The notes below the pieces were generated by a model that worked only from the letters and a program-made list of their open reading frames with translations, was not told the DNA's origin and searched no databases. A program made the translations under genes and the position numbers. From positions 161,371-225,370 of the forward strand of contig JAHEIH010000004.1 in the NCBI GenBank assembly GCA_024639455.1: a stretch of DNA of 64,000 bases. The letters are read 5' to 3'. The DNA is from Cellvibrionales bacterium. GTDB taxonomy: Bacteria > Pseudomonadota > Gammaproteobacteria > Pseudomonadales > JAHEIH01. Shown piece by piece: positions 5,373 through 58,691 of this stretch (positions are counted from its first letter, which is position 1; the number at the start of each line of letters is the position of its first letter).

Positions 5373-5383
5373 GGTGGGCCTCC

Positions 5384-5848: not shown

Positions 5849-5853
5849 GAGTA

Positions 5854-7418: not shown

Positions 7419-7490
7419 GCACAATTCCAAAGTAAGAAACCCTATTGAAGGTGGTTCAATAGGGTCCCGCAATATCAAATGGCGACAAGC

Positions 7491-12614: not shown

Positions 12615-12628
12615 TGTAACCGGTTTCA
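12615..12628. promoter_or_regulatory. LacI-type operator TGTAACCGGTTTCA
   Basis: One mismatch to TGTAAnCGnTTACA. It lies 93 bp upstream of the GMC start, in the region divergent from the lacI-like gene. Confidence 0.6.
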
Positions 12629-12808: not shown

Positions 12809-12822
12809 TGAAAACGTTTACA
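12809..12822. promoter_or_regulatory. LacI-type operator TGAAAACGTTTACA (possible autoregulation)
   Basis: One mismatch to the consensus. It lies about 100 bp upstream of the LacI start at 12924. Confidence 0.55.
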
Positions 12823-15412: not shown

Positions 15413-15413
15413 G

Positions 15414-16436: not shown

Positions 16437-16443
16437 ATCTGCT

Positions 16444-17169: not shown

Positions 17170-17184
17170 AAAATTTCAAACCTT

Positions 17185-17225
17185 AAAAAATAAAAAAGGG
17201 CTTTCACCGCGAGATGAAAGCCCTT
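17185..17225 (-). terminator. rho-independent terminator between the receptor and SapC genes
   Basis: Perfect 11-bp stem AAGGGCTTTCA / TGAAAGCCCTT (17196-17225), with an A-rich run at 17185-17195 (a U-run on the minus strand). Confidence 0.85.
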
Positions 17226-17240
17226 GTCTCTAACTAGCTA

Positions 17241-20200
17241 TTAGAAGCTGTAACGAGCTGACAACATGTAACGTGGATCAGCTTCGCCGTTCCAGTACTG
17301 CATACCTTCAGTACGGCCGTAGATCTTCTGGCCTTCGCCAGTCACGTTAATGCCATCCAGGCTTACGACGATGTCATCAGTTACGTTGTAAGTGATGTTC
17401 AAGTCGATCTGGCTGAACTCTTTAACGAATACGGGTGAACCAGCTTGGCCAGCGTATGCGGTTGAGTTCAGGAAGGTGTCACGCCAGTTGTATGCAACAC
17501 GTGCAGACAGCGCGTCATCTTCGTACATCAGCACCAAGTTAGCAGAATCAGACAGGCCTAACAAGGCGAACTGAGAAATGCTTGGGTCAGCCGATACATC
17601 GTAACCGATGTCGCCGTCAACCATGGTAGCGTTAGCGCTAACACCGAAGCCAGTGTCACCGAAGAAGTGCTGTACAGCGAATTCCCAACCGTCAATAGTC
17701 GCAGCTTGGTTGTTTACAGGCTGTGAAGTATTGAAGGTGTACAAAGGATCGCTCGCTCCGGGAGTGATGTCGTAATCAGCTTCTACCTGAGTAGTGTTGA
17801 TCGCTGAGAACTGAGTTGCAGTCAGAGCGTCGACTGAACCTACACCTGCCCAGTTAGCGTTGCCGTCACCGAAGTTCTGGATCAGCGCTGACATGGTGAA
17901 CATGTTGTCTTCGTTGACGTTCAGACCCAGTGCTTGCAGTTTAGCCAGAGCTTGACCAGACAAGCTGCCAGCTGTTGCCGCACCCGCGTCACGCAGGCCG
18001 AACAGAGACTGAGGAACTACTGCAGTACCCACGAAGTTTTCTACTTTCTTGTAGAAGTAGCCCGCCGACACGTAGCTAGCTTCGCCGTAGTAGTATTCCA
18101 ACGACAGGTCGAAGTTGTCAGACTCGAGAGGATCCAGTTTAGCGGTACCTTTGCTTGCAGTGGGGTAGCCACCCAAGTAAGTCAGAGTACCACCGGTAGA
18201 ACCGATACCCGTCTTAACGAACATGTCGCTGTAGCCTGGACGTGCGATTGACTTGCCGTAAGAAGCGCGCAGCTTCATTTCGTCAGTCAGGTCAACAGAA
18301 ACGTCCAAGTTTGGCAGGATGTTGCTGTAAGAGTAGTCTTCATCCAGTACTGCAGGAGACGCGCCAGCGTAGCTCTGTGCGAAGTCGTTGTTTGATTCCC
18401 AAATAATTGCAGTGGGAGACACTTGGACAGTCGCGGAGTTTACGTCGGTTTCTTCGTAGCGTACGCCGAAGTTCACTTGAACTGGCTTGCCAGAGAACTC
18501 AGTTTCCCACTTACCGTTCACGTAGACTGACGTAATGTCTTCGCTGATCAGGTTGTCGTTGCCGCCTGATGAGGTCAGATTATTCAACGAGAAGTTGGGG
18601 TAGATGTCGTTCTGCGCATCCATGTATTGAATGAACGAGTACGCGTCAACGGTGAAGGCTTGTTGACCCAAGATGGTCATGACGTAGCCATCAGGTGCAA
18701 TGCCAGTAGCGTTGGGGAAACCGTTGAACTGCAGATCGCCAAATGCACAAGTACCACAGATTTCAGTGATTTGATTGTCGTCAGGGATGTCGCCGTTACC
18801 CACGCCCCAACCACCGAGGTAGTCCGTAGTGCCTGAGTTTACTTGCGCCATTTCAGTTGACAGGAAGCCTGCACCGAAATCAACAGTCAGGCTGTCATCT
18901 ACTTCATAAGTACCGTCCAGGTTGAACTGGTCGATAGAAGATTTCTGCATTGAGCTGTTGGTGATGAAGGTTTGGGTGTTGATGTCGCCACGGTCGTAAA
19001 CGCCGTTGCCGTTACCCCAAGCGCCGTGTGAACCGTCAGCATCTACGTAGCCTTCGCTTTCCAGTACACCTACTGATGCAGTGGGAACACCGTCGCCGTA
19101 GTAAGCGGCCTGCCAGCCAGAACCTGAAGAAGCGATGTTGATGCGAGTACCTGCCCAGCCGTTAGGACCGTTACCACCAGACTCTGCTTCAGATGAAGCG
19201 GCATCTAAGCTGACGGTCAGTCGATCGCTGAACTCGTGACGGATGTTGATACCGAAAGACTGCATGGTGTCTTTTGACGCATCGTAGCGGTTGGCGTAGA
19301 AGTAGTCTTTACCTTCGTTAGGCACGCCGTCAGTGGTAGGCAGACGGTGCAATTCAACCAGTGCCAAAGGTGTGGCTACAATGGGGTTGCCGTCGAACTC
19401 AACGTATGAGTAGTTGCGGTTGAACCAAATACCAGGAACAACACCCGTTTGCTCTTGAGTGGTTTGGGTGTACAGCACGTCAGCAGTAATGGTAGTGCGG
19501 TCGCTTGGTGCGAACTGCATAGTGACCATGGCATTTGAACGCTCACGGTTCAGATCCATGATGTTCATGCCTATGTTCCAAGGAATCGCTACCAACGAAC
19601 CAGCAGCTGGCTCGTTAACGCGCTCAGCGTTTGCCCAAGGGCCCAGAGTAGGATCGTAGTCCAGGTACTGGTAACCAGAAACGTTTACACCGGCTGCGCC
19701 AGAGCTACGCTCTTGGTATGAACCAAACACGCTGATACCGAAAGTGTTGTCTTCGTTAGCCATGCTGAACAAGCCGCTGACTTCAGGCGTGATGTCCTTG
19801 TTGCCAGACTGGTCGTTAACCAATTTAACGCCAACAGACGCTTGGTCACCCGCTTCCAGAGGACGGTTGGTTTGAACGTTGATAGTCGCGCCCATACCAC
19901 CGCTAACAACTTTAGCGTTAGCTGTTTTGTAAACTTGAATACCTTGTACGCCTTCAGACGCCAGGTTTGAGAAGTCAAACGAACGAGAAGTACCCAGTGC
20001 GCCAGCTTCGTCAGAGTTACCAGTGACGTTGGCAACGTTTGCAGAGGGCATTTGACGACCGTTCAAGGTCACCATGTTGTAGCCGCCACCGAAACCACGA
20101 ACGGTTACTTGTGAGCCTTCGCCGTTTACACGGTCAATCGAAACACCGGTAATACGCTGCAGAGATTCTGCCAAGTTGGTGTCAGGGAATTTACCCATGT

Positions 20201-20387
20201 CTTCTGCAGAAATTGCATCAACAACACCTGATGAATCGCGTTTTACGTCCATTGCACGCATCAATGAACCGCGAATACCTGTAACTACAACTTCTTCAAC
20301 AGTGTTTTCTTGTGCAACAGCTTGGCCAGCAGCCAAAGTTGAAGTCACGCCAGCAATGACGAGAGAAAGTTTTGTTCTTCGAAACAT
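17241..20387 (-). CDS. TonB-dependent outer-membrane receptor (glycan-type, 1048 aa)
   Basis: Signal peptide, TonB box/plug EEVVVTGIRGSL...DAISAEDMGKFPDTNLAESLQRITGV, C-terminal ...RYSF. Confidence 0.9.
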   Translation of the reverse strand: MFRRTKLSLVIAGVTSTLAAGQAVAQENTVEEVVVTGIRGSLMRAMDVKRDSSGVVDAISAEDMGKFPDTNLAESLQRITGVSIDRVNGEGSQVTVRGFGGGYNMVTLNGRQMPSANVANVTGNSDEAGALGTSRSFDFSNLASEGVQGIQVYKTANAKVVSGGMGATINVQTNRPLEAGDQASVGVKLVNDQSGNKDITPEVSGLFSMANEDNTFGISVFGSYQERSSGAAGVNVSGYQYLDYDPTLGPWANAERVNEPAAGSLVAIPWNIGMNIMDLNRERSNAMVTMQFAPSDRTTITADVLYTQTTQEQTGVVPGIWFNRNYSYVEFDGNPIVATPLALVELHRLPTTDGVPNEGKDYFYANRYDASKDTMQSFGINIRHEFSDRLTVSLDAASSEAESGGNGPNGWAGTRINIASSGSGWQAAYYGDGVPTASVGVLESEGYVDADGSHGAWGNGNGVYDRGDINTQTFITNSSMQKSSIDQFNLDGTYEVDDSLTVDFGAGFLSTEMAQVNSGTTDYLGGWGVGNGDIPDDNQITEICGTCAFGDLQFNGFPNATGIAPDGYVMTILGQQAFTVDAYSFIQYMDAQNDIYPNFSLNNLTSSGGNDNLISEDITSVYVNGKWETEFSGKPVQVNFGVRYEETDVNSATVQVSPTAIIWESNNDFAQSYAGASPAVLDEDYSYSNILPNLDVSVDLTDEMKLRASYGKSIARPGYSDMFVKTGIGSTGGTLTYLGGYPTASKGTAKLDPLESDNFDLSLEYYYGEASYVSAGYFYKKVENFVGTAVVPQSLFGLRDAGAATAGSLSGQALAKLQALGLNVNEDNMFTMSALIQNFGDGNANWAGVGSVDALTATQFSAINTTQVEADYDITPGASDPLYTFNTSQPVNNQAATIDGWEFAVQHFFGDTGFGVSANATMVDGDIGYDVSADPSISQFALLGLSDSANLVLMYEDDALSARVAYNWRDTFLNSTAYAGQAGSPVFVKEFSQIDLNITYNVTDDIVVSLDGINVTGEGQKIYGRTEGMQYWNGEADPRYMLSARYSF

Positions 20388-20513: not shown

Positions 20514-20527
20514 TGTAATCGTTTCCA
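20514..20527. promoter_or_regulatory. LacI-type operator TGTAATCGTTTCCA
   Basis: One mismatch. It lies 127 bp upstream of the receptor start. Confidence 0.55.
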
Positions 20528-20634: not shown

Positions 20635-20648
20635 TGAAAACGATTACT
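20635..20648. promoter_or_regulatory. LacI-type operator-like site TGAAAACGATTACT
   Basis: Two mismatches. It lies in the same intergenic region, about 250 bp upstream of the receptor start. Confidence 0.4.
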
Positions 20649-20703: not shown

Positions 20704-21942
20704 TTACGAGCGATAGGGTTCTCGGCCAAATCCTTGTACTGGAATGCCCAGCTCAGGGAGCAGTTTTTGTTGGATTGCATACATCGCCGCCGCTGACTCA
20801 TCGATGGCGCGACAGAAGTCGATCGATGCTTGAAGCAATGGGCCAAGTTGAGCCTTGTCTTGAATGCGCGCCGGCGGGTATTCGTGCTCGACAACCAGGT
20901 AGGTGTTAGCCACGTCGATATCCAGCAGTTCGCGTGCCGCCAGTTGGTGATCTAGCCAGTCAACGGTACGGTTTTGCAGGTAGGCCAGTGGGTCGTGTTT
21001 GGCGGTGCCCGGCAGTTCGTGCTCGCAGGTCGCCACTTGCTTCTTCCATGCGTTCAAGTGGTCAGCAGGGTTGTTCGAGGGTTGGCCGTTGATCCAGTCG
21101 CCGCGTTCCATGCTTTGCCCGCCCCAGCCCCAGGCTGAAATACCCTTAGCGTCGGTGACTTGACCTTTAACGTGAAATCCGGCGATCAAGAAGTTGTAGC
21201 CTTCATCCTTTAGGTATTGGAACATCGAGCGAGTATCCTGACCCATTAACACGGCGTGTGACGGGTCGTAGTGAATACGGAATTGGTCGCCAACACCATG
21301 CTTTTCACAGATGCGGTGCAAGGCAATCCAAGGTCCTGGTGCGTAAGCGATGTTGTTGTGCCATAGGTCAGTGGTGTTCCAGCCGGGCATGGGGCATTGC
21401 TCGACGCGATAGGTAAGACCGCGAGCTTTGGCTTCTTTCAATAATGGAATGAATTCCGCTTCAAACATCTCGAGGTTTTGGTCCATTGACAGGTCGGGGT
21501 TGCGGCCGACAAAGCCACACACCGCGTCGGTGCCCATCATGACGGCGGCGTCAAACACGCGAAGCATGAACTCTTTTTTCTTCTCGCGGTTACCGCGGTC
21601 AGCTACCAGCATGTTGTCGAAGTATGCCAGGTCAGACAGGCCGACACCGGTGCTGTGCATGGCGGCCTGAACGCGCTTGGCGCGTTCTGCATTAAAGGGT
21701 TGTCGCAGATCCAAGGTGTTGGCCACAGGATCCAACATCGCCTCGGCGGGGATATCAGATTCGCTGGGGTGTAGTGCAGCTGCCAATTGAATGTAAGGAC
21801 AGTTCATGTCCGCTGAAAACTGCAGCCACTCCTCAATCGCTAAATCGGGATCTGGGTCGCGCTTTTCGCGCGGAGTGAGTTCTTGTAGCGCCGCTGTCAG
21901 GACGCTCAACTTCATGTGCTGTGGATCGTATGAAATACTCAT
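20704..21942 (-). CDS. xylose-isomerase-like TIM-barrel protein (sugar phosphate isomerase/epimerase superfamily), cytoplasmic, 412 aa
   Basis: Segments such as [14 protein letters not shown] and GFHVKG resemble AP_endonuc_2/TIM-barrel metal sites. No signal peptide. Confidence 0.6.
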
Positions 21943-21951
21943 GCTGCTCTC

Positions 21952-23178
21952 CTATTTTGCGTCGCTGCCAAGGGTTTCGTTTTTAAATACCAGTGCGAAC
22001 AGAACGAATACAGCCGCCGCGAAACCAGCGGGAATCAGCCAAATAGTCTGCCAGTCGTGGCTGCCGCCAACAGTGGTGTAGGCGTCGACGATTTTGCCCG
22101 AAGCGGCAAAGCCGATAAGCATACCGATGCCGTAGGTCGCCAGGGTGATCATGCCTTGAGCGGCACTCTTAATTTTTTCGCCGGCTTTATTGTCAGTGTA
22201 GATTTGGCCGCTGACAAAGAAGAAGTCGTAGCAAATGCCGTGCAGAGCGATACCCATCAACAACAGGAACATGCTGTTGTTGGGGTCGCCGTAGGCGAAG
22301 CTGACATAGCGAACAACCCACGCCAGCATGCCGAATAATAAGGTGGCTTTAATGCCGAAGCGCTTTAAAAAGACAGGCAGCAGCAGCATGAACAGTACTT
22401 CTGACACCTGGCCAATGGTCATTTTGCCAGTGGCATTTTCCACCCCAATTTCAGTTAGGAAGGGGTTAGCGTAGGAATAGTAGAACGCTAGCGGGATGCA
22501 GATCAGTACCGAGGCCAGGAAAAATACCGCGTAGTTACGGTCTTTCAGTAAGGCCAGTGCTTCCAGGCCTAGGATGTCGCTGATGCTCACCGCTTGGCCG
22601 CGCGCTGCAGGTGGCGTGGCAGGCAGGGTGAAGCTGTAGAAGCCAAGTACCACAGACACAATCGCGGTCATGGCGAAGGTGTTGCGCAGCATGCCGTTGG
22701 CAATGCTGCCTTGAGAGTCCCAAGAGAATACATAGCTGATCACCAAGCCGGCAACGATCCAGCCGATGGTGCCCCACAAGCGAATCTTACCGAACTCGCT
22801 GGCGGGGTCTTTCAATTGGTTGAACGATACCGAGTTCACAAGTGCCAGTGTCGGCATGTAGCACAGCATGTAGACGAACAGGTAGGGATAGAAGCTGTTG
22901 AAGTCTGACGAGGTGAAGAGCAGGTACATCAGACCTGCACCGACTAGGTGTAGCACACCTAAAATGCGCTCGGCGTTGAAGTAGCGGTCAGCAATCAGGC
23001 CGATAATAAAGGGCGCGATAATCGCACCCCAGGACTGTGTGCCGTAGGCCATGCCGATTTCGCCGCCGTTGGCTTGCAGGGTGCTGCCCATGAAGGTGCC
23101 CAGGGTAACGAACCACGCGCCCCAAACAAAAAATTGCATAAACATCATTGCGCACAAGCGCACAGTAATCGCGTTCAT
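21952..23178 (-). CDS. MFS transporter, nucleoside:H+ symporter (NHS)-like
   Basis: 12-TM profile. The N-terminus VRLCAMMFMQFFVWGAWFVTLGTFM is typical of NupG/XapB/YegT-like permeases. Confidence 0.7.
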   Translation of the reverse strand: MNAITVRLCAMMFMQFFVWGAWFVTLGTFMGSTLQANGGEIGMAYGTQSWGAIIAPFIIGLIADRYFNAERILGVLHLVGAGLMYLLFTSSDFNSFYPYLFVYMLCYMPTLALVNSVSFNQLKDPASEFGKIRLWGTIGWIVAGLVISYVFSWDSQGSIANGMLRNTFAMTAIVSVVLGFYSFTLPATPPAARGQAVSISDILGLEALALLKDRNYAVFFLASVLICIPLAFYYSYANPFLTEIGVENATGKMTIGQVSEVLFMLLLPVFLKRFGIKATLLFGMLAWVVRYVSFAYGDPNNSMFLLLMGIALHGICYDFFFVSGQIYTDNKAGEKIKSAAQGMITLATYGIGMLIGFAASGKIVDAYTTVGGSHDWQTIWLIPAGFAAAVFVLFALVFKNETLGSDAK

Positions 23179-23204: not shown

Positions 23205-24344
<1,140 letters not shown>

Positions 24345-24399
24345 TAGTATTTACCAACTGGTTTTTTGTTTATATTTAGGTCAGTATTTAAACCCAAAA

Positions 24400-24413
24400 T
24401 GTAAACGTTTGCA
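24400..24413. promoter_or_regulatory. LacI-type operator TGTAAACGTTTGCA in a 79-bp divergent intergenic region
   Basis: One mismatch to the consensus. It lies between the Gfo/Idh/MocA start (24344) and the Tat TIM-barrel start (24424). Confidence 0.6.
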
Positions 24414-24423
24414 TAGGTGCAAT

Positions 24424-25263
24424 ATGATAAATATTACAACTTCCCGCCGAGGTCTTTTGAAATCCGCCGCTGCATTTGCAGCTCTCGCTTCCGTTCCCAG
24501 CGTGTTTGCGCACGGCGATCACGCCCGTGTCGGTTTACAGCTATACACGGTGCGCGACCTCGCCAAAGAGGATTTTTTAGGTGCGCTAGAACAAGTGGCG
24601 GCGATTGGCTACAAGGACATGGAATTCGCCGGTTACTTCGGTCACTCGGTGCAAACTCTGCGTCGTCACCTCGATGCGTTGGGTATGGCCGCTCCCTCGG
24701 CACACATTCCTTTGAACGCGTTTCAAGATAATACAGACAAAGTCATTGAAGACGCCCTGGTGATGGGCCATCACTACTTGGTCATGCCCTACCTGACCCA
24801 AGAGCAACGCACAGGCGGTATTGAAACCTATAAACGTCTGGCTGAATTTCTCAACGGCGTGGGTGAAAAATGCCGCGCTAGCGGCATCATGTTGGCCTAC
24901 CACAACCACGACTTTGAATTCCAAGCCGAAGATGGCCAGTTGCCCTACGACGTATTGTTAGAGGTGCCTGCCGACAATATGCTGATGGAGATGGATCTTT
25001 ATTGGACCATTAAGGCAGGCTACGATCCCGTGGCATACTTCGCTAAACACCCTGGTCGCTTCCCGCTGTGGCACGTGAAAGACATGGACGCTGAGGGTAA
25101 CTTTGCTGATGTCGGTACCGGCACCATCGATTTTGAGCGTATCTTTGCACAGCGACAATTAGCGGGTTTGCAGCACGGCTTTGTCGAGCGTGATCGCACC
25201 GACAACTTAGCGCGCACATTGACCCGCAGCTTTGAGGGTGCCAAGCGCTTCATTGAAGGTTAA
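24424..25263 (+). CDS. Tat-exported xylose-isomerase-like TIM-barrel protein (paralogue 1)
   Basis: Twin-arginine signal MINITTSRRGLLKSAAAFAALASVPSVFA. Core segments LQLYTVRD, YHNHDFEF, EMDLYW and WHVKD. The ORF-track start at 24292 was rejected because it overlaps the neighbouring gene and the operator. Confidence 0.8.
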   Translation: MINITTSRRGLLKSAAAFAALASVPSVFAHGDHARVGLQLYTVRDLAKEDFLGALEQVAAIGYKDMEFAGYFGHSVQTLRRHLDALGMAAPSAHIPLNAFQDNTDKVIEDALVMGHHYLVMPYLTQEQRTGGIETYKRLAEFLNGVGEKCRASGIMLAYHNHDFEFQAEDGQLPYDVLLEVPADNMLMEMDLYWTIKAGYDPVAYFAKHPGRFPLWHVKDMDAEGNFADVGTGTIDFERIFAQRQLAGLQHGFVERDRTDNLARTLTRSFEGAKRFIEG

Positions 25264-25274
25264 GCAGAGAACAA

Positions 25275-25297
25275 CGCCGGCACGCCGGCGTTTTTTT
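25275..25297 (+). terminator. rho-independent terminator 25 nt before the GH78 start
   Basis: Stem CGCCGG / CCGGCG with loop CACG, followed by seven T. Confidence 0.8.
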
Positions 25298-25322
25298 ACA
25301 ATAAAAAGAAGAGACAATAGCC

Positions 25323-28300
25323 ATGCTTAAATCCTTTGTTACCGCCCTTGGTGTAACGCTTTTATCCGCACTTATACTGGGATGTGGTGCTAAACCCTCT
25401 CCAACAAAGCTGCAGGTTGTGAATCTTGGTGTCGAAGGACGTGCGGCGCCGTTGGCGGTGGATGTTGCCACGCCGCGCTTTTCTTGGCAGTTGACCAGTA
25501 ATCAGCCCAGCGTGCAGCAGAAGAGCTACCACATCGTTGTCACGCAAGGCAAAAGCGTGGTGTGGGACAGCGGCAATATAGCCTCGAATGCGTCCGTCCA
25601 TGTGCCCTATGCCGGGACGAGTCTTCAGCCTGAACAGGACTACCAGTGGCGCGTGTCGGTGAGTACCAATGTCGGTGATGCCTCGGCGCAGGGGCGTTTT
25701 GTTACGGGGATGATGATGGCGCCGGGCGAGGTCGAGGGTTGGGCTGGCGCGCAGTGGGTCGGTGGTGGAGATAGTGATCTGCCGTTTTATTCGCACGCGT
25801 TGCCAGTGTTCCAGGTGGAGTACAGCGTGCAGCTGCACAATAGCCAACGGGCCTCTTTTGTTTTCGGGGCCAACGATGCCCGGCTACAGGATGCTAGTCA
25901 AAATATTTACCGTATTGCCAGTGGCCATAACGAAAGCTATTTGTCTCTGGCCTTGGATATCGCCCCTTTGCAGCAAGGCAAACTGGCGCAACTACTTGTG
26001 TATCGAGTGGGTTATCACCCGGATGACAGTTCAGATAAACCACTGGCGGTACTCGATGTTCCCTCCGCGGCCATCAATATAGGCAACGCCTATCAGCCCC
26101 ATCACTTTGTCGTGCGTAGCAATGTTTCGCGCTTAGATATTGCCATTACTAACGATGAACAACAGTGGTGGCTGGCTAAGCAGTTGGTGGTGAACCCGGT
26201 GGGGAACAGTCATGACTTTATTGCTTTTCCCCAGTTAGCGGATATCGGTTTTCAGATGTCGCAGGGGCAGGCCGCCACCTTTTCCAACCTGCGTATTAAG
26301 CACTATCGCGCGCCGCAAAGTACCCTTTTTGAAGAGCGCGGTGTCGACAGTATATTTAGCGATGTCGAAGGCGTGTCCTATGCTGCGGGTAAATACCACC
26401 TAGACGGTGAACGCACGGTGATGGCCACCGCCGACCCTAGCCGCAACGCCATGCCGATGTTGCGCCACGCCTTTGCCAGCAAGACTGGTGAGCTGATCAG
26501 TGCACGCCTATTTGCGACCGCGCGAGGTGCGTACGAGATCTACCTCAACGGTGAGCGTTTGGGCGAACAGATGTTTATGCCGGGCTTAACCCAATATAAC
26601 GCCACCCATGAATACCAAACCTTCGATGTGACGTCATTAATAATTGCAGGTGGCGAAAACGTGTTGGCGGCGCAGCTCGCTGAGGGTTGGTGGAGTGGGG
26701 CAATCACCTTCCACACCAATCTGTGGAATTTCTTCGGTGATCGACAATCGCTCATCGCTAAGCTTGTATTGCGCTTTAGTGATGGCAGTGAGCAAGTGAT
26801 AACGACCCAGCCCGATACGTGGCAGTTCTTCAATCAGGGACCGTTGCGCGCCAGTAGTATTTTCCAAGGGGAAGTCTACGACGCGCCAATCGCGGCGGCG
26901 ATGGCCGGGTGGAATGATGTGGGCTTCGACGCTTCAGCTTGGCAGCCAGCTCAGATCGTAGCGGCGCAGGATATCGCGCCATATGTTGAGCCCTTCCCTT
27001 GGTCTGGGCGCACCTTTGCCTTTAATTTTGAAGATTTACATTTCATCGCCCAGCCCGACGAAGGCGTGGATGTCGCCGCTGAACTGACCGCTCAGTCGGT
27101 GGTAAAGGTCGCGCCAGATATATTTATCTACGATTTTGGCCAGAATATGGCGGGCGTACCACAGGTCACCTTGGTTGGCGAGGCGGGCCAACAGATACAA
27201 ATGCGTTTTGCCGAAGTGCTTTACCCTGATCGCCCCGAGCACCCAGGCTTGGCTGGAACCATGATGATGGAAAATATTCGCGCGGCTATGGCGCAGGATA
27301 CCTTCGTGCTTGCCGGCGGCAATGAAGTGTTGCAGCCGCGCTTCACCTACCACGGGTTCCGCTATATGGAGATTAAGGGACTGGAAGAAGCGTTGCCGTT
27401 GGCGCAGGTTAAAGCGCTTTCGCTCAGTTCGGTGAATCAATTAAACGCGAGTTTTAACTCATCCAACGCCAATGTGAATAAGTTGTGGCAAAACATCAGC
27501 TGGTCGTTGCGTTCCAATTTCTTTTCGATTCCTACCGATACCCCTGCCCGCAACGAGCGCATGGGTTGGGGAGGCGACATCAATGTCTTTGCGCGCACGG
27601 CTTTGCATTTAGCGGATGCTGGACCCTTCTTGGCGCGCCATATGACAGCGCTTCGCGATACCCAGCAAGCCGATGGCCGCTTCCCCGATGTAGCACCTGT
27701 GGTGGGGGGCTTTGGTGGGACATTGTGGGGGACTGCTGGTACTGTCATCCCTTGGGAGGTCTACCAACAGACGGGCGATAGCAAGATCCTGCGCGATAAT
27801 TTCGCGGCCATGGCGCGCTACGTCGACTACCTCACGGGTCGCATCGATCCAGCGACCAACATCCTCGACGAAGGTCCATTGGGGGATTGGTTGAGCCCGG
27901 AGGGGTCCAAAAACGATGACACGCTATTCTGGGAAGCCTACTACCTGCATTCACTGCGCATTCTGGCTGATAGCGCGGCTGTTTTGCAGGATGCGGTTAA
28001 TGAGCAGAAGTATCGCGACCTTTTTAGTGCGCGCCTCGCCCATTACCAACGTGTGTATTTTAATGATAAAGGCAAAAGTCGCTCGTCGGGTTTTGCTGGC
28101 ATCATGTTTGGTCAAAAGGACCCAGCTTTGAAGCAGGTCGGCACCCCTATTGATTCACAGGCCTCCTACGCTGTGCCACTGGCCATGTCCCTGTTGCAAG
28201 GTGATATGCAGCGCAAAGCACAGCAGAATCTCCTGGCGGCAGTGAGCAGAAGTAATACCGACGACCTTGGCAAGCAACGTCCTCCTTATTCGCTCATGAC

Positions 28301-28886
28301 CGGCTTCATTGGTACCGCGGTATTACTGCCGTCCTTGTCGGAGGCGGGTTTCGATGAGGCAGCCTATCGATTGTTGCAGCAGGAAGCCTACCCATCGTGG
28401 ATCTACCCTGTGAAAAACGGCGCGACAACGATATGGGAGCGTCTGAACTCATACACCCACGAAGAGGGTTTTGGTGGCAATAATAGTATGAACTCCTTCA
28501 ATCACTACGCTTTTGGTTCGGTAGGGGAGTGGTTGTATCGCTACAGCTTGGGTATCCGTCCATTGACGCCAGGCTATCAGCGCTTCGCCTTGCGGCCTAC
28601 GCCCGACCCCACAGGGCAGATGTCATTTGCTGAAGGGCATGTCGATTCGCCCTATGGGCGTATCGCCTCGCGTTGGGAGGTCTCAGCTAGCGATACGCGC
28701 TACACATTTAACGTGCCAGCGAATACCTCTGCTGAGGTGGCGTTATTAGCAAACCCTGAGCTCACACGAATCAATGGTGAGCGCTTGGTTGAGGCAGGTC
28801 GAGCTTTCGACGCCGAAGCAGGCCGAATCCAATTGACGCTAGGAAGTGGCGAATACTTGATCGAGGTGGCAGAGGCGACCGACTAA
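25323..28886 (+). CDS. glycoside hydrolase family 78 alpha-L-rhamnosidase lipoprotein (1187 aa)
   Basis: Lipobox LILGC. Rhamnosidase N-domain pattern ARGAYEIYLNGERLGEQMFMPGLTQY...AEGWWSG. Catalytic six-hairpin segment IPTDTPARNERMGWGGD, and GFRYMEI. Confidence 0.85.
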   Translation: MLKSFVTALGVTLLSALILGCGAKPSPTKLQVVNLGVEGRAAPLAVDVATPRFSWQLTSNQPSVQQKSYHIVVTQGKSVVWDSGNIASNASVHVPYAGTSLQPEQDYQWRVSVSTNVGDASAQGRFVTGMMMAPGEVEGWAGAQWVGGGDSDLPFYSHALPVFQVEYSVQLHNSQRASFVFGANDARLQDASQNIYRIASGHNESYLSLALDIAPLQQGKLAQLLVYRVGYHPDDSSDKPLAVLDVPSAAINIGNAYQPHHFVVRSNVSRLDIAITNDEQQWWLAKQLVVNPVGNSHDFIAFPQLADIGFQMSQGQAATFSNLRIKHYRAPQSTLFEERGVDSIFSDVEGVSYAAGKYHLDGERTVMATADPSRNAMPMLRHAFASKTGELISARLFATARGAYEIYLNGERLGEQMFMPGLTQYNATHEYQTFDVTSLIIAGGENVLAAQLAEGWWSGAITFHTNLWNFFGDRQSLIAKLVLRFSDGSEQVITTQPDTWQFFNQGPLRASSIFQGEVYDAPIAAAMAGWNDVGFDASAWQPAQIVAAQDIAPYVEPFPWSGRTFAFNFEDLHFIAQPDEGVDVAAELTAQSVVKVAPDIFIYDFGQNMAGVPQVTLVGEAGQQIQMRFAEVLYPDRPEHPGLAGTMMMENIRAAMAQDTFVLAGGNEVLQPRFTYHGFRYMEIKGLEEALPLAQVKALSLSSVNQLNASFNSSNANVNKLWQNISWSLRSNFFSIPTDTPARNERMGWGGDINVFARTALHLADAGPFLARHMTALRDTQQADGRFPDVAPVVGGFGGTLWGTAGTVIPWEVYQQTGDSKILRDNFAAMARYVDYLTGRIDPATNILDEGPLGDWLSPEGSKNDDTLFWEAYYLHSLRILADSAAVLQDAVNEQKYRDLFSARLAHYQRVYFNDKGKSRSSGFAGIMFGQKDPALKQVGTPIDSQASYAVPLAMSLLQGDMQRKAQQNLLAAVSRSNTDDLGKQRPPYSLMTGFIGTAVLLPSLSEAGFDEAAYRLLQQEAYPSWIYPVKNGATTIWERLNSYTHEEGFGGNNSMNSFNHYAFGSVGEWLYRYSLGIRPLTPGYQRFALRPTPDPTGQMSFAEGHVDSPYGRIASRWEVSASDTRYTFNVPANTSAEVALLANPELTRINGERLVEAGRAFDAEAGRIQLTLGSGEYLIEVAEATD

Positions 28887-28905
28887 TCTTACTTGCGATT
28901 AGAGG

Positions 28906-28921
28906 TGTAACCGATTACATT
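28906..28921. promoter_or_regulatory. LacI-type operator TGTAACCGATTACATT
   Basis: Perfect match to the consensus core. It is the exact reverse complement of 2304-2319 and lies 64 bp upstream of the 28985 start. Confidence 0.65.
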
Positions 28922-28984
28922 CGAGGCCAATTAAAATAATGAATGTTCAGCATCTCTAATCACTGGTTAGCTAAGGATCTCGCT

Positions 28985-29935
28985 ATGAATCGTCGTCAAT
29001 TTCTTCAATCGACTGCTGTGATGGCAGCGGCCACAACTGCGCCCACGATGGCTATGCACCACGCTAAAGGCTGTGGCACGGCCAAAAACACCTATGGCGT
29101 GCAAGCTTGGATGGTGCGTGACGCATTGGCTAAAAGTGTACCCGACACCCTGGCGGCGCTGGAAAGCGTCGGCATTACCGAGATGGAATTGTTTGGTTTT
29201 GGCGCGCAAGGATTTGAATCAGACAAGCCGCTGTTCAATATGAGTGTTGACGATCTGGTCGCGGCGCGCGATGCCAGCAAGGTGCGCTTCCCTGTTGGTC
29301 ACCTCAATGGCCCTGTCGCCGATCTGGCGCGTGCGGCTAGCATTGCCAAACGCTTGGGGTGCCACACCCTGATCGAGTCGATGGCGCAGGAATTATTGAG
29401 CTTTGAAAACGGCGTGCCCCGTTTGACGACGCCCAAAACACTGGCTGAGGTGGATGCCATTGCCGACCGTTTAAATGGTTTGGGTAAGCAGTACGCCGAG
29501 CACGGTCTGCAGTTTGCATACCACAATCACCATATGGAGTTTGCTGAGGTGGAAGGCCAAGTGATGTACCACTATTTAATGTCTAAAACCGATCCCGAGT
29601 TGGTGAAGGTGGAGCTCGACTTAGGTTGGGCGGCGGCGGCCGGCCAAGATCCTGTGGCGTTAATTGTGCAATATGGCGACCGCTTGGTTTCGACCCATAT
29701 GAAGGACTACGATCCCTCAATCCCCATGCCTGAAAACCCCAGTGCGCAAATTTTAATTCCTGAAATGGTGCGTTTGAAACCACCCGGTGAGGGCAAGTCT
29801 GACTTTGTCGGTATCGTGCGCGAACTCAACCGTTTAGGCGTTAAGCACCGTTTTATCGAAGTCGATTACACTGAAGCGCCGATCAAAGATTTGGCGACGG
29901 GCTACTGCAACCTTAGCCACATCGATCGCGCCTAA
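28985..29935 (+). CDS. Tat-exported xylose-isomerase-like TIM-barrel protein (paralogue 2)
   Basis: Twin-arginine signal MNRRQFLQSTAVMAAATTAPTMA preceded by AAGGA. Core segments VQAWMVRD, YHNHHMEF, ELDLGW and THMKD parallel those of paralogue 1. Confidence 0.8.
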   Translation: MNRRQFLQSTAVMAAATTAPTMAMHHAKGCGTAKNTYGVQAWMVRDALAKSVPDTLAALESVGITEMELFGFGAQGFESDKPLFNMSVDDLVAARDASKVRFPVGHLNGPVADLARAASIAKRLGCHTLIESMAQELLSFENGVPRLTTPKTLAEVDAIADRLNGLGKQYAEHGLQFAYHNHHMEFAEVEGQVMYHYLMSKTDPELVKVELDLGWAAAAGQDPVALIVQYGDRLVSTHMKDYDPSIPMPENPSAQILIPEMVRLKPPGEGKSDFVGIVRELNRLGVKHRFIEVDYTEAPIKDLATGYCNLSHIDRA

Positions 29936-29938
29936 ATC

Positions 29939-31420
29939 ATGTTACGTTTGCTTGTTGCAACCCTATTGTTAAGCGTCGCTGGGTGGGCTTCAGCCGGTCC
30001 AGCGGATGCCGAATGGGTGGACCAAGCGCATAAACCTCGGGTCATAATCCTGACCGATATCGGTAACGAGCCCGACGACCAAATGTCGCTGGTACGCTTT
30101 TTGTTGTATAGCAACCAGTACGACATAGAAGCCATGGTGGCGGTGACCTCTACCTGGCAGCGCGACAAGACCCAAGTGTCGACCATCAAAGAGATCGTTA
30201 AGACCTTTGGTGAGGTGCTGCCCAATCTACAATTACACGCCGAGGGCTGGCCAAGTGAGGCCTACCTCGCCGAGCATATTTTTGTCGGGCAGCCCGGTTA
30301 TGGTATGTCCGATGTTGGCACTAAAACATCTGCTGGTGCGCAAGCGATTATCGATGCCGCCTTTGCCGATGATGAGCGCCCGCTGTGGATCAACAACTGG
30401 GGCGGCGCCAATACCCTGGCACAGGCCCTGTGGCAAGTGCGGGAAAGTCGCACGGCGGATGAGTTGGTGCATTTTGTGAGTAAACTGCGCGTGTATTCTA
30501 TCTCCGACCAAGACGACAGCGGTGCTTGGATACGCCGAGAGTTCCCCGACCTACACTATGTTAATTTTCCTTCCAATGACAACGGCGAGGAATACGGCTT
30601 TGCCACCTGGACCGGTATCAGTGGCGACGGTTACTACCGCAATGGCGACGGGGCCGATACCCATTTGGTTAGCAACGCGTGGCTCGATGAGCACATTCGC
30701 AGCATTCAACCGCTGGGCAACCACTATCCACAATATTGGTTCATCATGGAGGGCGATACCCCAGCCTTCCTCGGCTTAATCGATAACGGTTTGGAAACCT
30801 ATCGCAGCCCCGCTTGGGGTGGCTGGAGTGGCCGCTACGTGCACCGCACGCCACGCGCCGAACAGAGCCCTTACTGGACACAAGGTGGCGACATGTTCTT
30901 GCGGGTCACCTCGCAGGACGAAGTGGTGGGTGTCGATGGCGGTACCTATTGGAGCGATCAAGCGACCATTTGGCGTTGGCGGGATGCCTATCAGCACGAC
31001 TTTGCGGCGCGCATGCAATGGACGGTAAAAAGTGTGCAAGACGCCAACCATAATCCTGTCATTTCCCTGGCCGGTTACCGGGAGGGCGAAACGCTGTTCA
31101 TCGATATGGCGGTAGGCGATCAGCTCATACTGGACGCGAGTGGTAGTCGCGACCCCGATGGCGACACACTGAACTATGCATGGATGCATTACAAGGAAGC
31201 GGGTTTTATTGGCAAAGCAAACATGGCCGATATGCAGCTCGACCCGCACGGCGCCGCCGTGACAATAACAGCCAAGGCGACCTGTCGCGCCCCTTGGTTG
31301 CCCAACTTTGTACAGTGCGAAAAGCAGGGTTTGGCACACATTATTCTGGCAGTAACAGATAACGGTGAACCCCACATGACGAGCTATCGACGTATCGTCA
31401 TTGACGTTCACGCTAAATAA
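29939..31420 (+). CDS. DUF1593 protein (Sde_0182-type nucleoside-hydrolase-like domain plus C-terminal beta domain), secreted
   Basis: Signal peptide. The hallmark KPRVIILTDIGNEPDDQMSLVRFLLYSNQYDIEAMVAVTS of the nucleoside-hydrolase-like DUF1593 domain. Confidence 0.7.
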   Translation: MLRLLVATLLLSVAGWASAGPADAEWVDQAHKPRVIILTDIGNEPDDQMSLVRFLLYSNQYDIEAMVAVTSTWQRDKTQVSTIKEIVKTFGEVLPNLQLHAEGWPSEAYLAEHIFVGQPGYGMSDVGTKTSAGAQAIIDAAFADDERPLWINNWGGANTLAQALWQVRESRTADELVHFVSKLRVYSISDQDDSGAWIRREFPDLHYVNFPSNDNGEEYGFATWTGISGDGYYRNGDGADTHLVSNAWLDEHIRSIQPLGNHYPQYWFIMEGDTPAFLGLIDNGLETYRSPAWGGWSGRYVHRTPRAEQSPYWTQGGDMFLRVTSQDEVVGVDGGTYWSDQATIWRWRDAYQHDFAARMQWTVKSVQDANHNPVISLAGYREGETLFIDMAVGDQLILDASGSRDPDGDTLNYAWMHYKEAGFIGKANMADMQLDPHGAAVTITAKATCRAPWLPNFVQCEKQGLAHIILAVTDNGEPHMTSYRRIVIDVHAK

Positions 31421-31464
31421 GAAATAGCGAAAGCTATCCATCACAGTGCATACGAGGAGTGATT

Positions 31465-33096
31465 ATGCAGCAGTTAAAATCGAAATGGCAGCGCTCGCTG
31501 CTGGTGGCCGGTGCGGTTAGCGCCATGTGGTTGGCCGGTTGTGGCCAGCCGCCCGCGGAAGCCCCAAACGCCGCGGCTGATATTACCATCGCCAACACCA
31601 CCAGTGGTCAGGTTAAGGGTGTGTTGGAAGGCGATATTTTGGCATTTAAAGGCATTCCGTATGCGGCGCCCCCAGTGGGTGATTTGCGTTGGGCACCCAC
31701 CCAAGCCATGCCCGCTTGGGACGGTGTACGCGATGCTAGTGAGTATGGTGCTGACTGCATGCAAGAGCCCTTCCCCAGCGATGCGGCGCCACTGGGCACG
31801 CAACCCGATGAGGATTGCTTGGTTGTTAACATCTGGCGTAAAGCGAAGCCTGCTAGTGAGTCGCTGCCGGTAGTGTTCTGGATCCACGGCGGTGGTTTCG
31901 TTAACGGCGGCTCATCGCCCGACGTGTATGACGGCAGCCCCTTTGCCGAGCAAGACACGCTATTCGTTAGCTTGAACTACCGCCTAGGGCGCTTTGGTTT
32001 CTTTGCTCACCCTGCGGTGACCGCTGAGGCTAAAGGCATGCTGGGTAACTACGGCTATATGGATCAGGTCGCTGCGCTGGAATGGGTGCGCGATAATATC
32101 GCTAATTTTGGCGGTAACCCCAATGATGTGACCATTATGGGTGAATCAGCCGGTGGGTTCTCGGTGATCAATCTGATGACCGCCAAGCAGTCACAAGGTC
32201 TGTTCCACAAGGCCATTGTCATGTCGGGCGGCGGCCGCGCGCGCATGGGTGGTATGCGCGGCATCAATGAAGCGCCAGAGGGTCAATTGTCTGGTGAACA
32301 AATCGGTCTGAACTTCGCCGCGTTCCACGGCATTGAAGGAGAGGGGGCTGAAGCCCTGGCGGCGATGCGTGCCCTGAGCCAAGAAGCCGTGACTAACAAA
32401 CTCAGCATGATCCAATTGTTCCGCCCTGATCCCGGTCCACAAACCTACGTGGGTGGCCCTTTGATGGATGGCGAGATGATCGCTGGCCAACAAAGTGCGG
32501 TGATTGCTGCGGGTGGCGCTGCCAAGGTGCCCGTATTGATTGGTACCACCAGCATGGATATCGGGTTCTTAGGTGGTGCGACCAAAGACGAAGTGTTTGC
32601 GCAGTTTGGCGATATGGCGGATGAGATGCGTGCGACCTACGATCCAAGTGGTGAGCTGCCTCTTGACGTCTTACGTGCGACCATCGGTGCTGACCAATCG
32701 ATGAATGAACCTGCCCATTTTGTGGCGCGCGAAATGACCAAGCACGGTCAAGACGCTTGGGTTTACCGCTTCTCCTACGTGGCCGAATCGATGCGCGCTG
32801 AGTGGCCAGGAGCCCCTCACGCGACAGATATTCCCTTCTTCTTTGACACGGTGAAAGCCAAGTATGGCGACGCACTCACCGCACAAGACGCCCGTGCTGC
32901 CGATAATGCATTGCAGGCATTTGCCAACTTTGTTAAAACCGGCAATCCAAATCCTGCTGGCAGCGATGCGTGGCCTACCTACCAAGGTGCCCACGGTCCG
33001 ATCATGGATTTTGATACGAACGGCGACGCCACGGTGAAAGATGATCCTTGGCAAGCGCGCTTGTCGGTACTGACAAAGTTCCTCGACGCGCAATAA
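31465..33096 (+). CDS. type-B carboxylesterase lipoprotein
   Basis: Lipobox WLAGC, oxyanion HGGGF, nucleophile elbow GESAGG. The ATG at 31465 follows GAGGAG. The ORF-track GTG at 31459 overlaps that RBS. Confidence 0.85.
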   Translation: MQQLKSKWQRSLLVAGAVSAMWLAGCGQPPAEAPNAAADITIANTTSGQVKGVLEGDILAFKGIPYAAPPVGDLRWAPTQAMPAWDGVRDASEYGADCMQEPFPSDAAPLGTQPDEDCLVVNIWRKAKPASESLPVVFWIHGGGFVNGGSSPDVYDGSPFAEQDTLFVSLNYRLGRFGFFAHPAVTAEAKGMLGNYGYMDQVAALEWVRDNIANFGGNPNDVTIMGESAGGFSVINLMTAKQSQGLFHKAIVMSGGGRARMGGMRGINEAPEGQLSGEQIGLNFAAFHGIEGEGAEALAAMRALSQEAVTNKLSMIQLFRPDPGPQTYVGGPLMDGEMIAGQQSAVIAAGGAAKVPVLIGTTSMDIGFLGGATKDEVFAQFGDMADEMRATYDPSGELPLDVLRATIGADQSMNEPAHFVAREMTKHGQDAWVYRFSYVAESMRAEWPGAPHATDIPFFFDTVKAKYGDALTAQDARAADNALQAFANFVKTGNPNPAGSDAWPTYQGAHGPIMDFDTNGDATVKDDPWQARLSVLTKFLDAQ

Positions 33097-33144: not shown

Positions 33145-34395
33145 ATGGAGACGGCATCTAGCAACAACGTAACTAACAGTTACGACCCTAGCGCAAATTA
33201 CACATTGCCCCTGGCGGGCTTAACCGCACTGTTTTTTATGTGGGGTTTTATTACCTGCTTGAACGATATTTTGATTCCCCACTTGAAAAACTTGTTCTCG
33301 CTGAGTTACACCCAGGCGATGTTGATTCAGTTCTGCTTCTTTGGGGCTTACTTTATTGTATCTATCCCGGCCGGTAAGTTGGTGCGCCGTCTTGGCTACC
33401 AGCGCGGTATCGTGGTGGGCTTGCTCGGCGCCGCTTTGGGTTGTGGCATGTTCCTTCCCGCCGCGAGTTTGCACTCATACGCCCTGTTCCTGGCAGGTCT
33501 GTTTGTCATGGCGTCGGGTATTACCATTCTTCAGGTATCGGCCAACCCTTACGTGGCGGCCCTCGGCAAGCCAGAAACCGCTTCTAGTCGTTTGACCCTG
33601 ACCCAAGCCTTTAACTCGTTGGGCACCACGGTGGCACCTTTCTTCGGCGCGATGTTGATTCTGGCGGCAGCAGAACCCGCGTTGGAAGGTATGAGCGAAA
33701 CAGCGATGCGTGCACAGGAAGCCGACGCCGTGAAAATGCCCTACTTGATGTTGGCATCGGCTTTTGTGGTATTGGCGATCATCTTCTACAACCTGCGTTT
33801 GCCCGTGGTACACGAAGAAGGCGATAGCGCTGAAAAATTGAAATACAGCGATTACCCTCACTTGGTACTGGGCGCTGTAGGTATTTTCATGTACGTAGGT
33901 GCGGAAGTCGCTATTGGTAGCTTCCTGGTGAACTTCATGGGTCTGGCAAACATCGCCGGCATGGATGAAGCAACCGCGGCGCCTTACATTGCCTACTACT
34001 GGGGCGGTGCCATGGTGGGGCGCTTTATCGGTGCTTGGGTGATGCAAAAAGTCCCCGCGGGTAAGGTGTTGGCCTTCAATGGCGGCATGGTCATCCTGCT
34101 GGTGGCGATCGCTATTGTCACCGAGGGAAGCATCGCGATGTGGTCACTGCTGGCTGTGGGCCTGTTTAACTCGATCATGTTCCCCACCATCTTTACCTTG
34201 GGTATTGCGGGTCTGGGTAACGGCACTAGCCAAGGTTCAGGTCTGATGTGCTTGGCCATCGTTGGCGGTGCGATCGTACCTCTGTTTATGGGCATGTTGG
34301 CCGATGTCAGCGGCATTCAGTTGGCGCTTATCCTGCCTGCGCTTTGCTACCTGTTCATTGTTTACTACGGTTTGGTGGGTCACAAGCCACGTTAA
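33145..34395 (+). CDS. MFS sugar permease, FucP/GluP (fucose or glucose/galactose:H+ symporter) type
   Basis: 12-TM protein with [19 protein letters not shown], characteristic of the FHS family. Confidence 0.8.
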
Positions 34396-34405
34396 TCGAT
34401 AGATG

Positions 34406-34438
34406 AAAAATCCAAGGGCGCCACTGGCGCCCTTTTTT
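34406..34438. terminator. rho-independent terminator between the convergent permease and LacI genes
   Basis: Stem AAGGGCGCC / GGCGCCCTT followed by a T-run. There is a partial A-run on the left. Confidence 0.8.
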
Positions 34439-35461: not shown

Positions 35462-35634
35462 GGAATTCACTTATCATTCTTCTTAAACGTTCGATTCTAG
35501 AGAATACCCAGTGCCAGTACTATGGCGAATAGTAAGGTTATAACAAACCTGACAAAACCAACGCTATTTCTAGGGTTAGTGAGCTTACGAGACAGTGTCC
35601 TTAAGGTTGATTGAATTTACCAAAGAGGCATAGG

Positions 35635-54125: not shown

Positions 54126-54134
54126 GAGTTGACG

Positions 54135-55358: not shown

Positions 55359-55374
55359 TGATTAGGAAATAGCT

Positions 55375-57021: not shown

Positions 57022-57046
57022 TGGCGATACCCCACAGGAGAAAACA

Positions 57047-57796: not shown

Positions 57797-57806
57797 GGAT
57801 GGTTAA

Positions 57807-58676: not shown

Positions 58677-58691
58677 TTGAGAGAGATAACT

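Follow-up and report, generated by a model that had tools for sequence, protein, structure and literature searches.

What do two probably exported TIM-barrel proteins do when their genes stand on either side of a rhamnosidase gene? The question is raised by a 64,000-nucleotide stretch of a Cellvibrionales bacterium genome (contig JAHEIH010000004.1, positions 161,371 to 225,370; hereafter the window). Gene A (24424-25263, + strand; 279 residues, MINITTSRRGLLKS...) and gene B (28985-29935, + strand; 316 residues, MNRRQFLQS...) encode xylose-isomerase-like TIM barrels with twin-arginine translocation (Tat) signals, and a GH78 α-L-rhamnosidase lipoprotein (25323-28886, + strand; five GH78 domains, E 2.6e-92; lipobox LILGC) is encoded between them. 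The original prediction, an earlier reading of the same letters, had described this arrangement, and it stands: the open reading frames (ORFs) lie at these coordinates and both proteins match PF01261 in Pfam (A, E 8e-14; B, E 2.6e-14). From sequence and fold comparisons we consider it probable that A and B are Tat-exported, metal-dependent (Mn2+/Co2+-type) 3-keto-O-glycoside 1,2-lyases of the AtOGE / BT1-AL1 family, predicted to work in the periplasm. With comparable confidence, we suggest that they would carry out the bond-breaking step of an oxidative, non-hydrolytic route of glycoside utilisation under LacI-type control.

This assignment begins with three characterised enzymes. AtOGE (8BVK) is an Mn2+-dependent O-glycoside β-eliminase that converts 3-keto-phlorizin to phloretin and 2-hydroxy-3-keto-glucal (PMC10628242), while AL1 and BT1 are former "sugar phosphate isomerases" that eliminate on 3-keto-β-glucosides (Nasseri et al., bioRxiv 10.1101/2024.03.25.586180). 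Among solved structures compared by sequence, A retrieved AL1 (8TCD/8TCR, E 1e-30; 8TCD 9e-31), the entry 8TCS (1e-30), AtOGE (8BVK, 3e-26) and BT1 (8TCT, 2e-24), and B retrieved the same entries (8TCD, 7e-18; 8TCT, 2e-17; 8BVK, 2e-10). The fold search covered a model of B, A being compared with solved structures by sequence. The AlphaFold model of B, built from 38 sequences, is an eight-stranded barrel (predicted local distance difference test, pLDDT, 90) with a longer loop after strand 7; B belongs to a rare subfamily. Its top Foldseek matches were BT1 (8TCT, 2.9e-18) and AL1 (8TCD, 5e-18), with AtOGE at 6e-12; the library labels 8TCD/8TCR "Alistipes sp. 3-Keto-beta-glucopyranoside-1,2-Lyase AL1" and 8TCT as Bacteroides thetaiotaomicron BT1.

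The active site follows the same pattern. Published residues were placed on an alignment of A, B, the three references and 50 family members (8 A-type, 26 B-type and 16 from the wider family). The residues mapped from AtOGE were His132, Asp163, His189 and Glu233 (metal), His134 (base), and Glu39, His66 and Glu161; those from AL1 and BT1 were the Co2+-binding His, Asp and His, the sugar contacts His, Trp and His, and a Glu above C2. The corresponding residues are E67, H94, H160, H162, E189, D191, W194, H217 and E255 in A and E68, H106, H180, H182, E210, D212, W215, H238 and E292 in B; the predicted active sites further include E165, K219 and D220 of A and E185, K240 and D241 of B. The metal site (A H160, D191, H217, E255; B H180, D212, H238, E292) is invariant in all 50 aligned members; H162 of A and H182 of B are equivalent to the catalytic His134 of AtOGE, E255 and E292 are the Glu over C2, and the sugar-contacting His and Trp are H94 and W194 in A and H106 and W215 in B. 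A and B both retain every mapped metal, catalytic and sugar-contact residue, and all, or almost all, of the 50 members do so too.

In a rough neighbour-joining tree, A groups with Alteromonadaceae homologues near AL1 and BT1, B falls in a separate clade, AtOGE splits off outside these two groups and the cytoplasmic TIM barrels are far removed from all of them; A and B are therefore bracketed by the characterised lyases AL1/BT1 and AtOGE. At the level of sequence, every comparison by which membership of the AtOGE / AL1-BT1 lyase family was tested came out in favour of A and B. Because the sugar contacts are identical while the loops over the barrel mouth differ, A and B probably act on one keto-sugar but accept different leaving groups. 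The original prediction had proposed a periplasmic β-elimination or hydration step on 3-keto-glycosides; lyase similarity, active-site conservation and synteny favour the elimination, and hydration is left as the weaker option.

The two genes are related to one another only at a distance. They share 30% identity across ~275 residues (E 1e-22), and the four motif pairs on which their relationship was first argued are all in register in the alignment. They are homologous, yet "paralogous", the word used for them at the time, applies only in a wide sense because the distance between A and B is about that between A and AL1 (32%); the other identities are 27% for A and BT1, 29% for A and AtOGE and 28% for B and AL1. 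A recent duplication of A to give B is ruled out by the 30% identity, by the separate clades and by the absence of B on the corresponding stretch of a relative whose A is 76% identical. As for the gene starts, the ORF listing offers longer frames (24292-25263 for A and 28943-29935 for B). An exact-sequence look-up found the short forms of both proteins in the protein collection and the exact long sequences absent from it, and the starts at 24292 and 28943 were dropped; the short starts were adopted because public gene calls use these internal starts. Begun at 24292, A would moreover run into the divergent GFO gene. Shine-Dalgarno-like sequences lie a few bases 5' of both adopted starts.

Could one of the two barrels do something other than eliminate? 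The alternative that survives best, though we regard it as rather unlikely, is that one is the lyase while the other is mainly a periplasmic 2-hydroxy-3-keto-glucal hydratase, or an α-anomer lyase replacing DUF1080. It gains weight from what the window does not encode: Pfam annotation, which covered every window ORF of at least 200 residues, found no DUF1080 in the 64 kb, although this domain accompanies GMC dehydrogenases in Alteromonas pelagimontana (L003, CP052766), in two loci with a B-type gene (L004 and L007) and in 17 of 80 related loci, these being the loci listed from a genome scan, mostly with more distant relatives. AL1 and BT1 themselves slowly hydrate the glucal (bioRxiv 10.1101/2024.03.25.586180), and the Agrobacterium operon pairs the lyase AtOGE with a hydratase, AtHYD, both TIM barrels (PMC10628242). 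Set against this, the catalytic set of both A and B is identical to that of the lyases. The fold of B matches AtHYD (8RO4) only at rank 36 (E 1.5e-9, template modelling score 0.55), compared with 3e-18 for BT1 and AL1, and neither A nor B matches 8RO4 in sequence searches, so that an AtHYD-type identity was rejected for both. In L004 and L007, moreover, the B-type gene is the sole TIM barrel and lyase candidate and must therefore serve as β-lyase beside DUF1080, and a cytoplasmic barrel of 412 residues (XI412) offers hydration another possible home. With no DUF1080 in the window, hydration would therefore proceed through the slow side-activity of the lyase, in the cytoplasm, or by a specialised A or B.

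A second alternative, that A and B are periplasmic keto-sugar isomerases, epimerases or dehydratases of the IolE type acting on free sugars, appears improbable. Their homologues are indeed named "sugar phosphate isomerase/epimerase" in all sources, but these names are uncurated, and AL1, BT1 and AtOGE bore the same name before they were characterised. The sole NCBIfam match is to the myo-inosose-2 dehydratase IolE (TIGR04379; E 2e-10 for A and 1.5e-18 for B), at 40.7 bits for A and 67.4 bits for B against a curated cut-off of 290, far under which an identity as inosose dehydratase was rejected. Structures of IolE and of ketose epimerases do occur in the Foldseek list, further down than the characterised lyases, which are the best matches in both sequence and fold, and inositol genes are absent from the locus. 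A C-glycoside deglycosidase identity was likewise rejected: A and B have His rather than Glu at the position of AtOGE His132, the distinguishing residue (PMC10628242), and Pfam annotation found no gene for the partner β subunit of such enzymes among the neighbours of A and B.

If A and B are lyases, where would they act? The signal of A (approximately residues 1-29, 24424-24510) comprises SRRGLLK, a 16-residue hydrophobic stretch (mean hydropathy 1.65) and a predicted cleavage after V-F-A, and that of B (approximately residues 1-23, 28985-29053) comprises NRRQFLQ, a weaker hydrophobic stretch (mean hydropathy 0.91) and T-M-A. B clears the Pfam TAT_signal model narrowly, with 23.1 bits against a cut-off of 22.7. 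Of the 119 best A homologues, whose N-termini are otherwise very variable, 115 have the twin-arginine motif; so do nearly all full-length representatives of the B subfamily and, in the wider family, 126 of the 141 representatives that are full-length. Motif, inspection and conservation together suggest that A and B are exported, and the frequency of the motif among homologues (115/119 and 126/141) therefore makes predicted Tat export the norm for this family rather than a peculiarity of the locus. The earlier remark that the fold is mostly cytoplasmic does not hold for the A/B family by the same counts. No tat genes lie within the window. That the motifs do not function as export signals and that A and B work in the cytoplasm, the apparent location of AtOGE (its chain aligns from its own residue 10, seemingly leaving no signal peptide), is very improbable even though A has no Pfam TAT_signal match at E <= 0.001, given the retention of the arginine pair and hydrophobic stretch at poorly conserved N-termini, the secretion signal carried by AL1 (bioRxiv 10.1101/2024.03.25.586180), and neighbours that include three lipoproteins (GH78, GH3 and esterase) and a GMC partner subunit with a Tat signal.

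One further feature of the N-terminus of B may be recorded here. B has a cysteine, C30, of a kind shared by about two thirds of the B-subfamily proteins inspected: a single cysteine ~7-10 residues before the first barrel strand, just past the predicted signal cleavage site. It has no consistent partner cysteine, and a few members have an additional true lipobox cysteine further upstream.

The neighbouring genes include candidates for other steps of an oxidative route. A GMC flavoprotein dehydrogenase (10831-12522, - strand), the candidate periplasmic glycoside 3-dehydrogenase, and its partner, a Gluconate_2-dh3 small subunit with the Tat signal MMNRRELLQ (10226-10831, - strand), lie 12-17 kb from A and B and share their operator motif. 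A GH3 glycosidase lipoprotein (7491-9839, - strand) lies beyond them, and on the other side are the first LacI-family regulator (12924-13928, + strand) and an outer-membrane uptake module consisting of a TonB-dependent receptor with SapC, Cupin_8 and Trp-halogenase-like genes (13931-20387, - strand). Next come XI412 (20704-21942, - strand), which has no signal peptide and is a hydratase or isomerase candidate; a nucleoside-H+-symporter-type MFS transporter (21952-23178, - strand), a candidate importer of the keto-sugar product; and a cytoplasmic GFO/IDH/MocA oxidoreductase (23205-24344, - strand), divergent from A and a candidate 3-keto-sugar reductase. Downstream of B, a secreted DUF1593 protein with a nucleoside-hydrolase-like domain (29939-31420, + strand) starts 3 bp past the B stop codon, and so tight a coupling suggests that it takes part in the B pathway. 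Its sole relative with a structure, the close homologue Saccharophagus Sde_0182 (E 4e-83; PDB 2YHG, "cellulose-binding protein"), is mentioned in one review, with no function given. A type-B carboxylesterase lipoprotein (31459-33096, + strand), an MFS_1 transporter (33145-34395, + strand) and a second LacI-family regulator (34451-35470, - strand) complete the locus.

A shared predicted operator motif links these genes. The whole window was scanned for the LacI-type palindrome TGTAAnCGnTTnCA with at most one mismatch, which gave seven sites, or 13 strand-matches against 1.18 expected; none of 100 shuffles reached 13. Of the seven sites, six occupy gaps on the promoter side of locus genes: two separate the GMC and first LacI genes (12615-12628 and 12809-12822), two lie upstream of the TonB-dependent receptor gene (20514-20527 and 20635-20648), one, TGTAAACGTTTGCA, stands 10 bp ahead of the A start codon in the gap that A shares with the divergent GFO gene (24400-24413), and one, the perfect palindrome TGTAACCGATTACA, in the gap between GH78 and B, 66 bp before the B start codon (28906-28919). 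The operator 5' of A is conserved in L090 and in the more distant relatives L088 and L089, and that between GH78 and B in L090 and L001; L090 also has it before the receptor and B, and L007 before the TonB receptor. The proposal of a single LacI regulon is thus borne out by a predicted operator motif found at seven sites where 1.2 would be expected. Strong terminator-like hairpins stand immediately 3' of A (25273-25292, + strand; 8 pairs, 6 of them G-C, then TTTTTT) and 3' of MFS_1 (34414-34434). From hairpins and operators together, A therefore looks like a unit of its own, while B, DUF1593, the esterase and MFS have their own operator. The seventh site (2306-2319) is another perfect palindrome, TGTAATCGGTTACA, and lies ~110 bp upstream of a 190-residue ORF (2428-3000) that has no Pfam match and whose N-terminus resembles a helix-turn-helix of the TetR type. 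This site may be a further part of the regulon or a chance occurrence.

The best-supported arrangement of these parts is the known oxidise-eliminate-hydrate-reduce route split over two compartments, each step of which is put forward here as a proposal. A glycoside would enter through the TonB-dependent receptor, and in the periplasm the esterase would take off acyl groups, GH78 the terminal α-L-rhamnose and GH3 other sugars. The GMC flavoprotein, exported with its Tat-signal small subunit, would then oxidise C3 of the exposed sugar. A, B or both would hold the 3-keto group at the His/Asp/His/Glu metal site, where removal of H2 and loss of the aglycone (E1cB) would leave 2-hydroxy-3-keto-glucal. 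The glucal, or 3-keto-glucose once hydrated, would be imported by the nucleoside-symporter-type MFS, and in the cytoplasm XI412 would process the keto-sugar and the GFO oxidoreductase reduce it to a normal hexose. There is precedent for the later steps in the Agrobacterium tumefaciens operon, which includes AtHYD and a GFO reductase (PMC10628242).

The cytoplasmic side of the locus appears to serve uptake and reduction of the keto-sugar, a later salvage step and not a parallel branch. The original prediction had placed both a periplasmic and a cytoplasmic branch of cleavage here, and the second finds no support in the sequence of XI412, which in the alignment has neither the second His of the lyase His-x-His nor the Trp, or in its MFS and GFO neighbours, which fit salvage. 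Conservation of XI412 is unusually high, at 78-81% identity to proteins from Parahaliea, Aestuariicella, Woeseiaceae and Steroidobacter, and it has no PDB relative by sequence or profile search, AtHYD 8RO4 included. Foldseek matched ketose 3-epimerases (1e-10) and AtHYD (1.4e-9, rank 11) about equally from a model of pLDDT 73 in which residues 260-325 are of low confidence, and an assignment to AtHYD was set aside.

How did two distant barrels come to flank one rhamnosidase? Metagenome contigs with an A 93-100% identical to that of the window repeat the order A-GH78-B-DUF1593-esterase-MFS-LacI. The metagenome-assembled genome (MAG) GCA_041163785.1, in which A is 76% identical, has a simpler layout: rhodanese, exonuclease-phosphatase, the 412-residue barrel, MFS and GFO genes, and across the divergent gap A directly followed by MFS_1. 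Genes for GH78, B, DUF1593, the esterase, a TonB receptor and a GMC protein are all missing from this stretch. The window holds the same rhodanese and exonuclease-phosphatase genes (405-2119), and the MFS_1 5' ends of the two are clearly orthologous. As judged from these alignments, A belongs to a conserved core, XI412-MFS-GFO divergent from A-MFS, into which GH78-B-DUF1593-esterase is a putative cassette inserted between A and MFS_1; an ~18-kb block (~2.1-20.4 kb) with GH3, GMC, the first LacI and the TonB-receptor genes is likewise a predicted second insertion. The two barrels would thus flank GH78 because the cassette was inserted next to A.

Beyond such close relatives, the two barrels have very different distributions. 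The A family is large: of the candidates that were scored, 7108 matched at E <= 1e-10. Alteromonas, Paraglaciecola, Aliiglaciecola and Microbulbifer account for many of those named, and all are called "sugar phosphate isomerase/epimerase" or "TIM barrel protein". In A. pelagimontana, an A homologue 55% identical has as neighbours LacI, GFO, TIM-barrel, same-type MFS, Tat-signal TIM-barrel, GMC (69% identical to that of the window), small-subunit and DUF1080 genes. Across the 80 listed loci, 20 have GMC within 10 kb, 17 DUF1080, 16 GFO, 14 the small subunit and 13 the MFS found here as candidate importer; GH78, DUF1593, this esterase and the 412-residue barrel are in none of the 80. The Tat-signal barrel between the GMC and MFS genes of A. 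pelagimontana (L003 4222-5109; 295 residues, MVNSRRNLLKG...) is of a third kind, unrelated to the A/B lyase family and without His-x-His.

Relatives of B are few. An indexed search returned 9 clusters at 33% identity or more, all metagenomic, and an exhaustive profile search of 1.84 billion representatives returned ~21 full-length clusters (50% identity) at 295 bits or more, below which, fragments aside, full-length scores fall to ~219 bits. Among the matches listed from species-representative genomes, at least two MAGs, one of Pseudohongiellaceae and one of Steroidobacteraceae, have a B relative 36-38% identical. In L004 the B-type gene lies between esterase-DUF1080 and GMC-small subunit, adjoining a TonB receptor/SapC/cupin/halogenase set, and L007 has the order small subunit-GMC-Dabb-B-DUF1080 together with LacI and a TonB receptor; an esterase 50% identical to that of the window follows the B-type gene in L006, and GMC, MFS and LacI lie near it in L009. 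The short contigs L005, L092 and L094, which also carry B-type genes, were uninformative as to context. The B subfamily is the part of this system most likely to hold something new. One tentative idea, which we would not place far above a guess, is that B-type barrels have an undescribed specificity, for acylated or rhamnosylated 3-keto-glycosides or for a non-glucose keto-sugar, and with DUF1593 and the carboxylesterase form a new periplasmic module for decorated natural-product glycosides; in a weaker variant, B may replace DUF1080 as hydratase or α-anomer lyase.

Several observations weigh against A and B as paired periplasmic lyases. First, identity to the characterised lyases is just 27-32%; the assignment of A, B and their close relatives is a prediction from sequence, and the substrate is inferred. 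Second, the Pfam signal model that recognises B passes over A. Third, the dehydrogenase is not a constant companion: 5 of 9 B-type contexts, some of them on short contigs, have no GMC nearby, and A is not always encoded beside one because the GCA_041163785.1 stretch has none. The closest solved relatives of the GMC protein are fructose and glucose dehydrogenases, and it is synteny only that suggests a glycoside 3-dehydrogenase. Finally, one barrel may have taken over hydration where the window lacks a DUF1080 hydratase/α-lyase.

The periplasmic lyases can be set beside five described systems. The closest are AL1 and BT1 (8TCD, 8TCR, 8TCT), which belong to the same TIM-barrel family, share the metal-binding His, Asp and His, the sugar contacts and the C2 Glu, and act in the periplasm after a 3-dehydrogenase, as predicted for A and B. 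The signal of AL1 is for general secretion, whereas those of A and B are of the Tat type; the oxidase partner of AL1/BT1 is a Tat-exported NAD-bound GFO protein with DUF1080 as helper, whereas here it is a GMC flavoprotein with a small subunit and no DUF1080; and their loci are those of gut Bacteroidota, whereas this one is a gammaproteobacterial TonB-receptor locus with GH78, esterase and DUF1593. AtOGE, in which His132, His134, Glu161, Asp163, His189 and Glu233 are the conserved positions, follows in its pathway a GMC-type glycoside 3-dehydrogenase that leaves the cytoplasm with a Tat-signal partner, as is proposed for the window, and its operon also includes a second TIM barrel and a GFO reductase. 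Unlike A and B, AtOGE appears to have no signal peptide, because of which its elimination would be cytoplasmic, and its operon contains no glycoside hydrolases or esterase. AtHYD (8RO4) shares the superfamily fold and the pathway but has no sequence match from A, B or XI412, and its fold matches (rank 36 for B, rank 11 for XI412) are weak and non-specific.

The remaining two are more remote. The LacABC / DUF1080 lactose-salicin system of the alphaproteobacterium Caulobacter crescentus, likened here by description, needs LacABC on the phenolic β-glucoside salicin as well (PMC9007349), with cleavage ascribed to DUF1080 and no reaction given to its "epimerases". The C-glycoside deglycosidases PuCGE / DgpBC and CarBC have a TIM barrel, an equivalent metal site and β-elimination on 3-keto-glycosides, as predicted for A and B, but they have Glu where AtOGE, A and B have His (PMC10628242) and require a second subunit, which is not encoded near A and B; AL1 and BT1 do not cleave 3-keto-C-glycosides. 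The arrangement was at first put forward as not known to be characterised, which overstated its novelty: periplasmic lyases of this family have been characterised in Bacteroides and Alistipes (bioRxiv 10.1101/2024.03.25.586180), and the version with a GMC dehydrogenase in Agrobacterium (PMC10628242) and genetically in Caulobacter (PMC9007349). In the literature, a targeted search since 2023 included, we found no description of such a locus in gammaproteobacteria. The elimination mechanism itself is known; what is new is the members and their gene context, namely the combination of a GMC dehydrogenase, Tat-signal predicted periplasmic lyases and no DUF1080 with linkage to GH78, GH3, an esterase, DUF1593 and a TonB receptor.

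Other parts of the window deserve brief mention. Immediately 3' of GH3, in the same orientation and with spacers of only a few bases, comes a molybdenum hydroxylase set (3135-7478, - strand). It consists of XdhC (6408-7478), a MobA-like transferase (5854-6429), a 2Fe-2S subunit (5384-5848) and a 745-residue Moco subunit with its own Tat signal, GRRSFLKA (3135-5372), all on the - strand, and this predicted periplasmic aldehyde/heterocycle oxidoreductase could act on freed aglycones. At the other end, a family III CoA-transferase (54129-55358), a MaoC-type hydratase (57807-58676) and an HpcH/CitE-like lyase (58677-59546), all on the + strand, look like an itaconate or citramalyl-CoA degradation set (54129-59546); the block at 35.6-59.5 kb that contains them also has acyl-CoA dehydrogenases, a thiolase, short-chain dehydrogenases and PrpD, with no evident tie to the glycoside locus. 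Over positions 60001-64000, G+C falls from ~55% to 44.5%. Two ORFs there (61279-62127 and 62127-63653) have no Pfam match and a third (60186-61352) has a weak esterase match, and the stretch may have been acquired horizontally.

The oxidise-eliminate-hydrate-reduce route was worked out in 2023-24 in gut Bacteroides and Alistipes and in Agrobacterium, and its natural substrates are still largely unknown. What this locus adds is annotation and ecology rather than mechanism. Thousands of proteins in Alteromonadaceae and related groups belong to the A family, and since all of them carry only the label "sugar phosphate isomerase/epimerase", re-annotation is warranted. The shared operator gives a regulon open to growth and induction experiments, and the content of the locus points to rhamnosylated, possibly acylated small-molecule glycosides as real substrates in a marine-type gammaproteobacterium.

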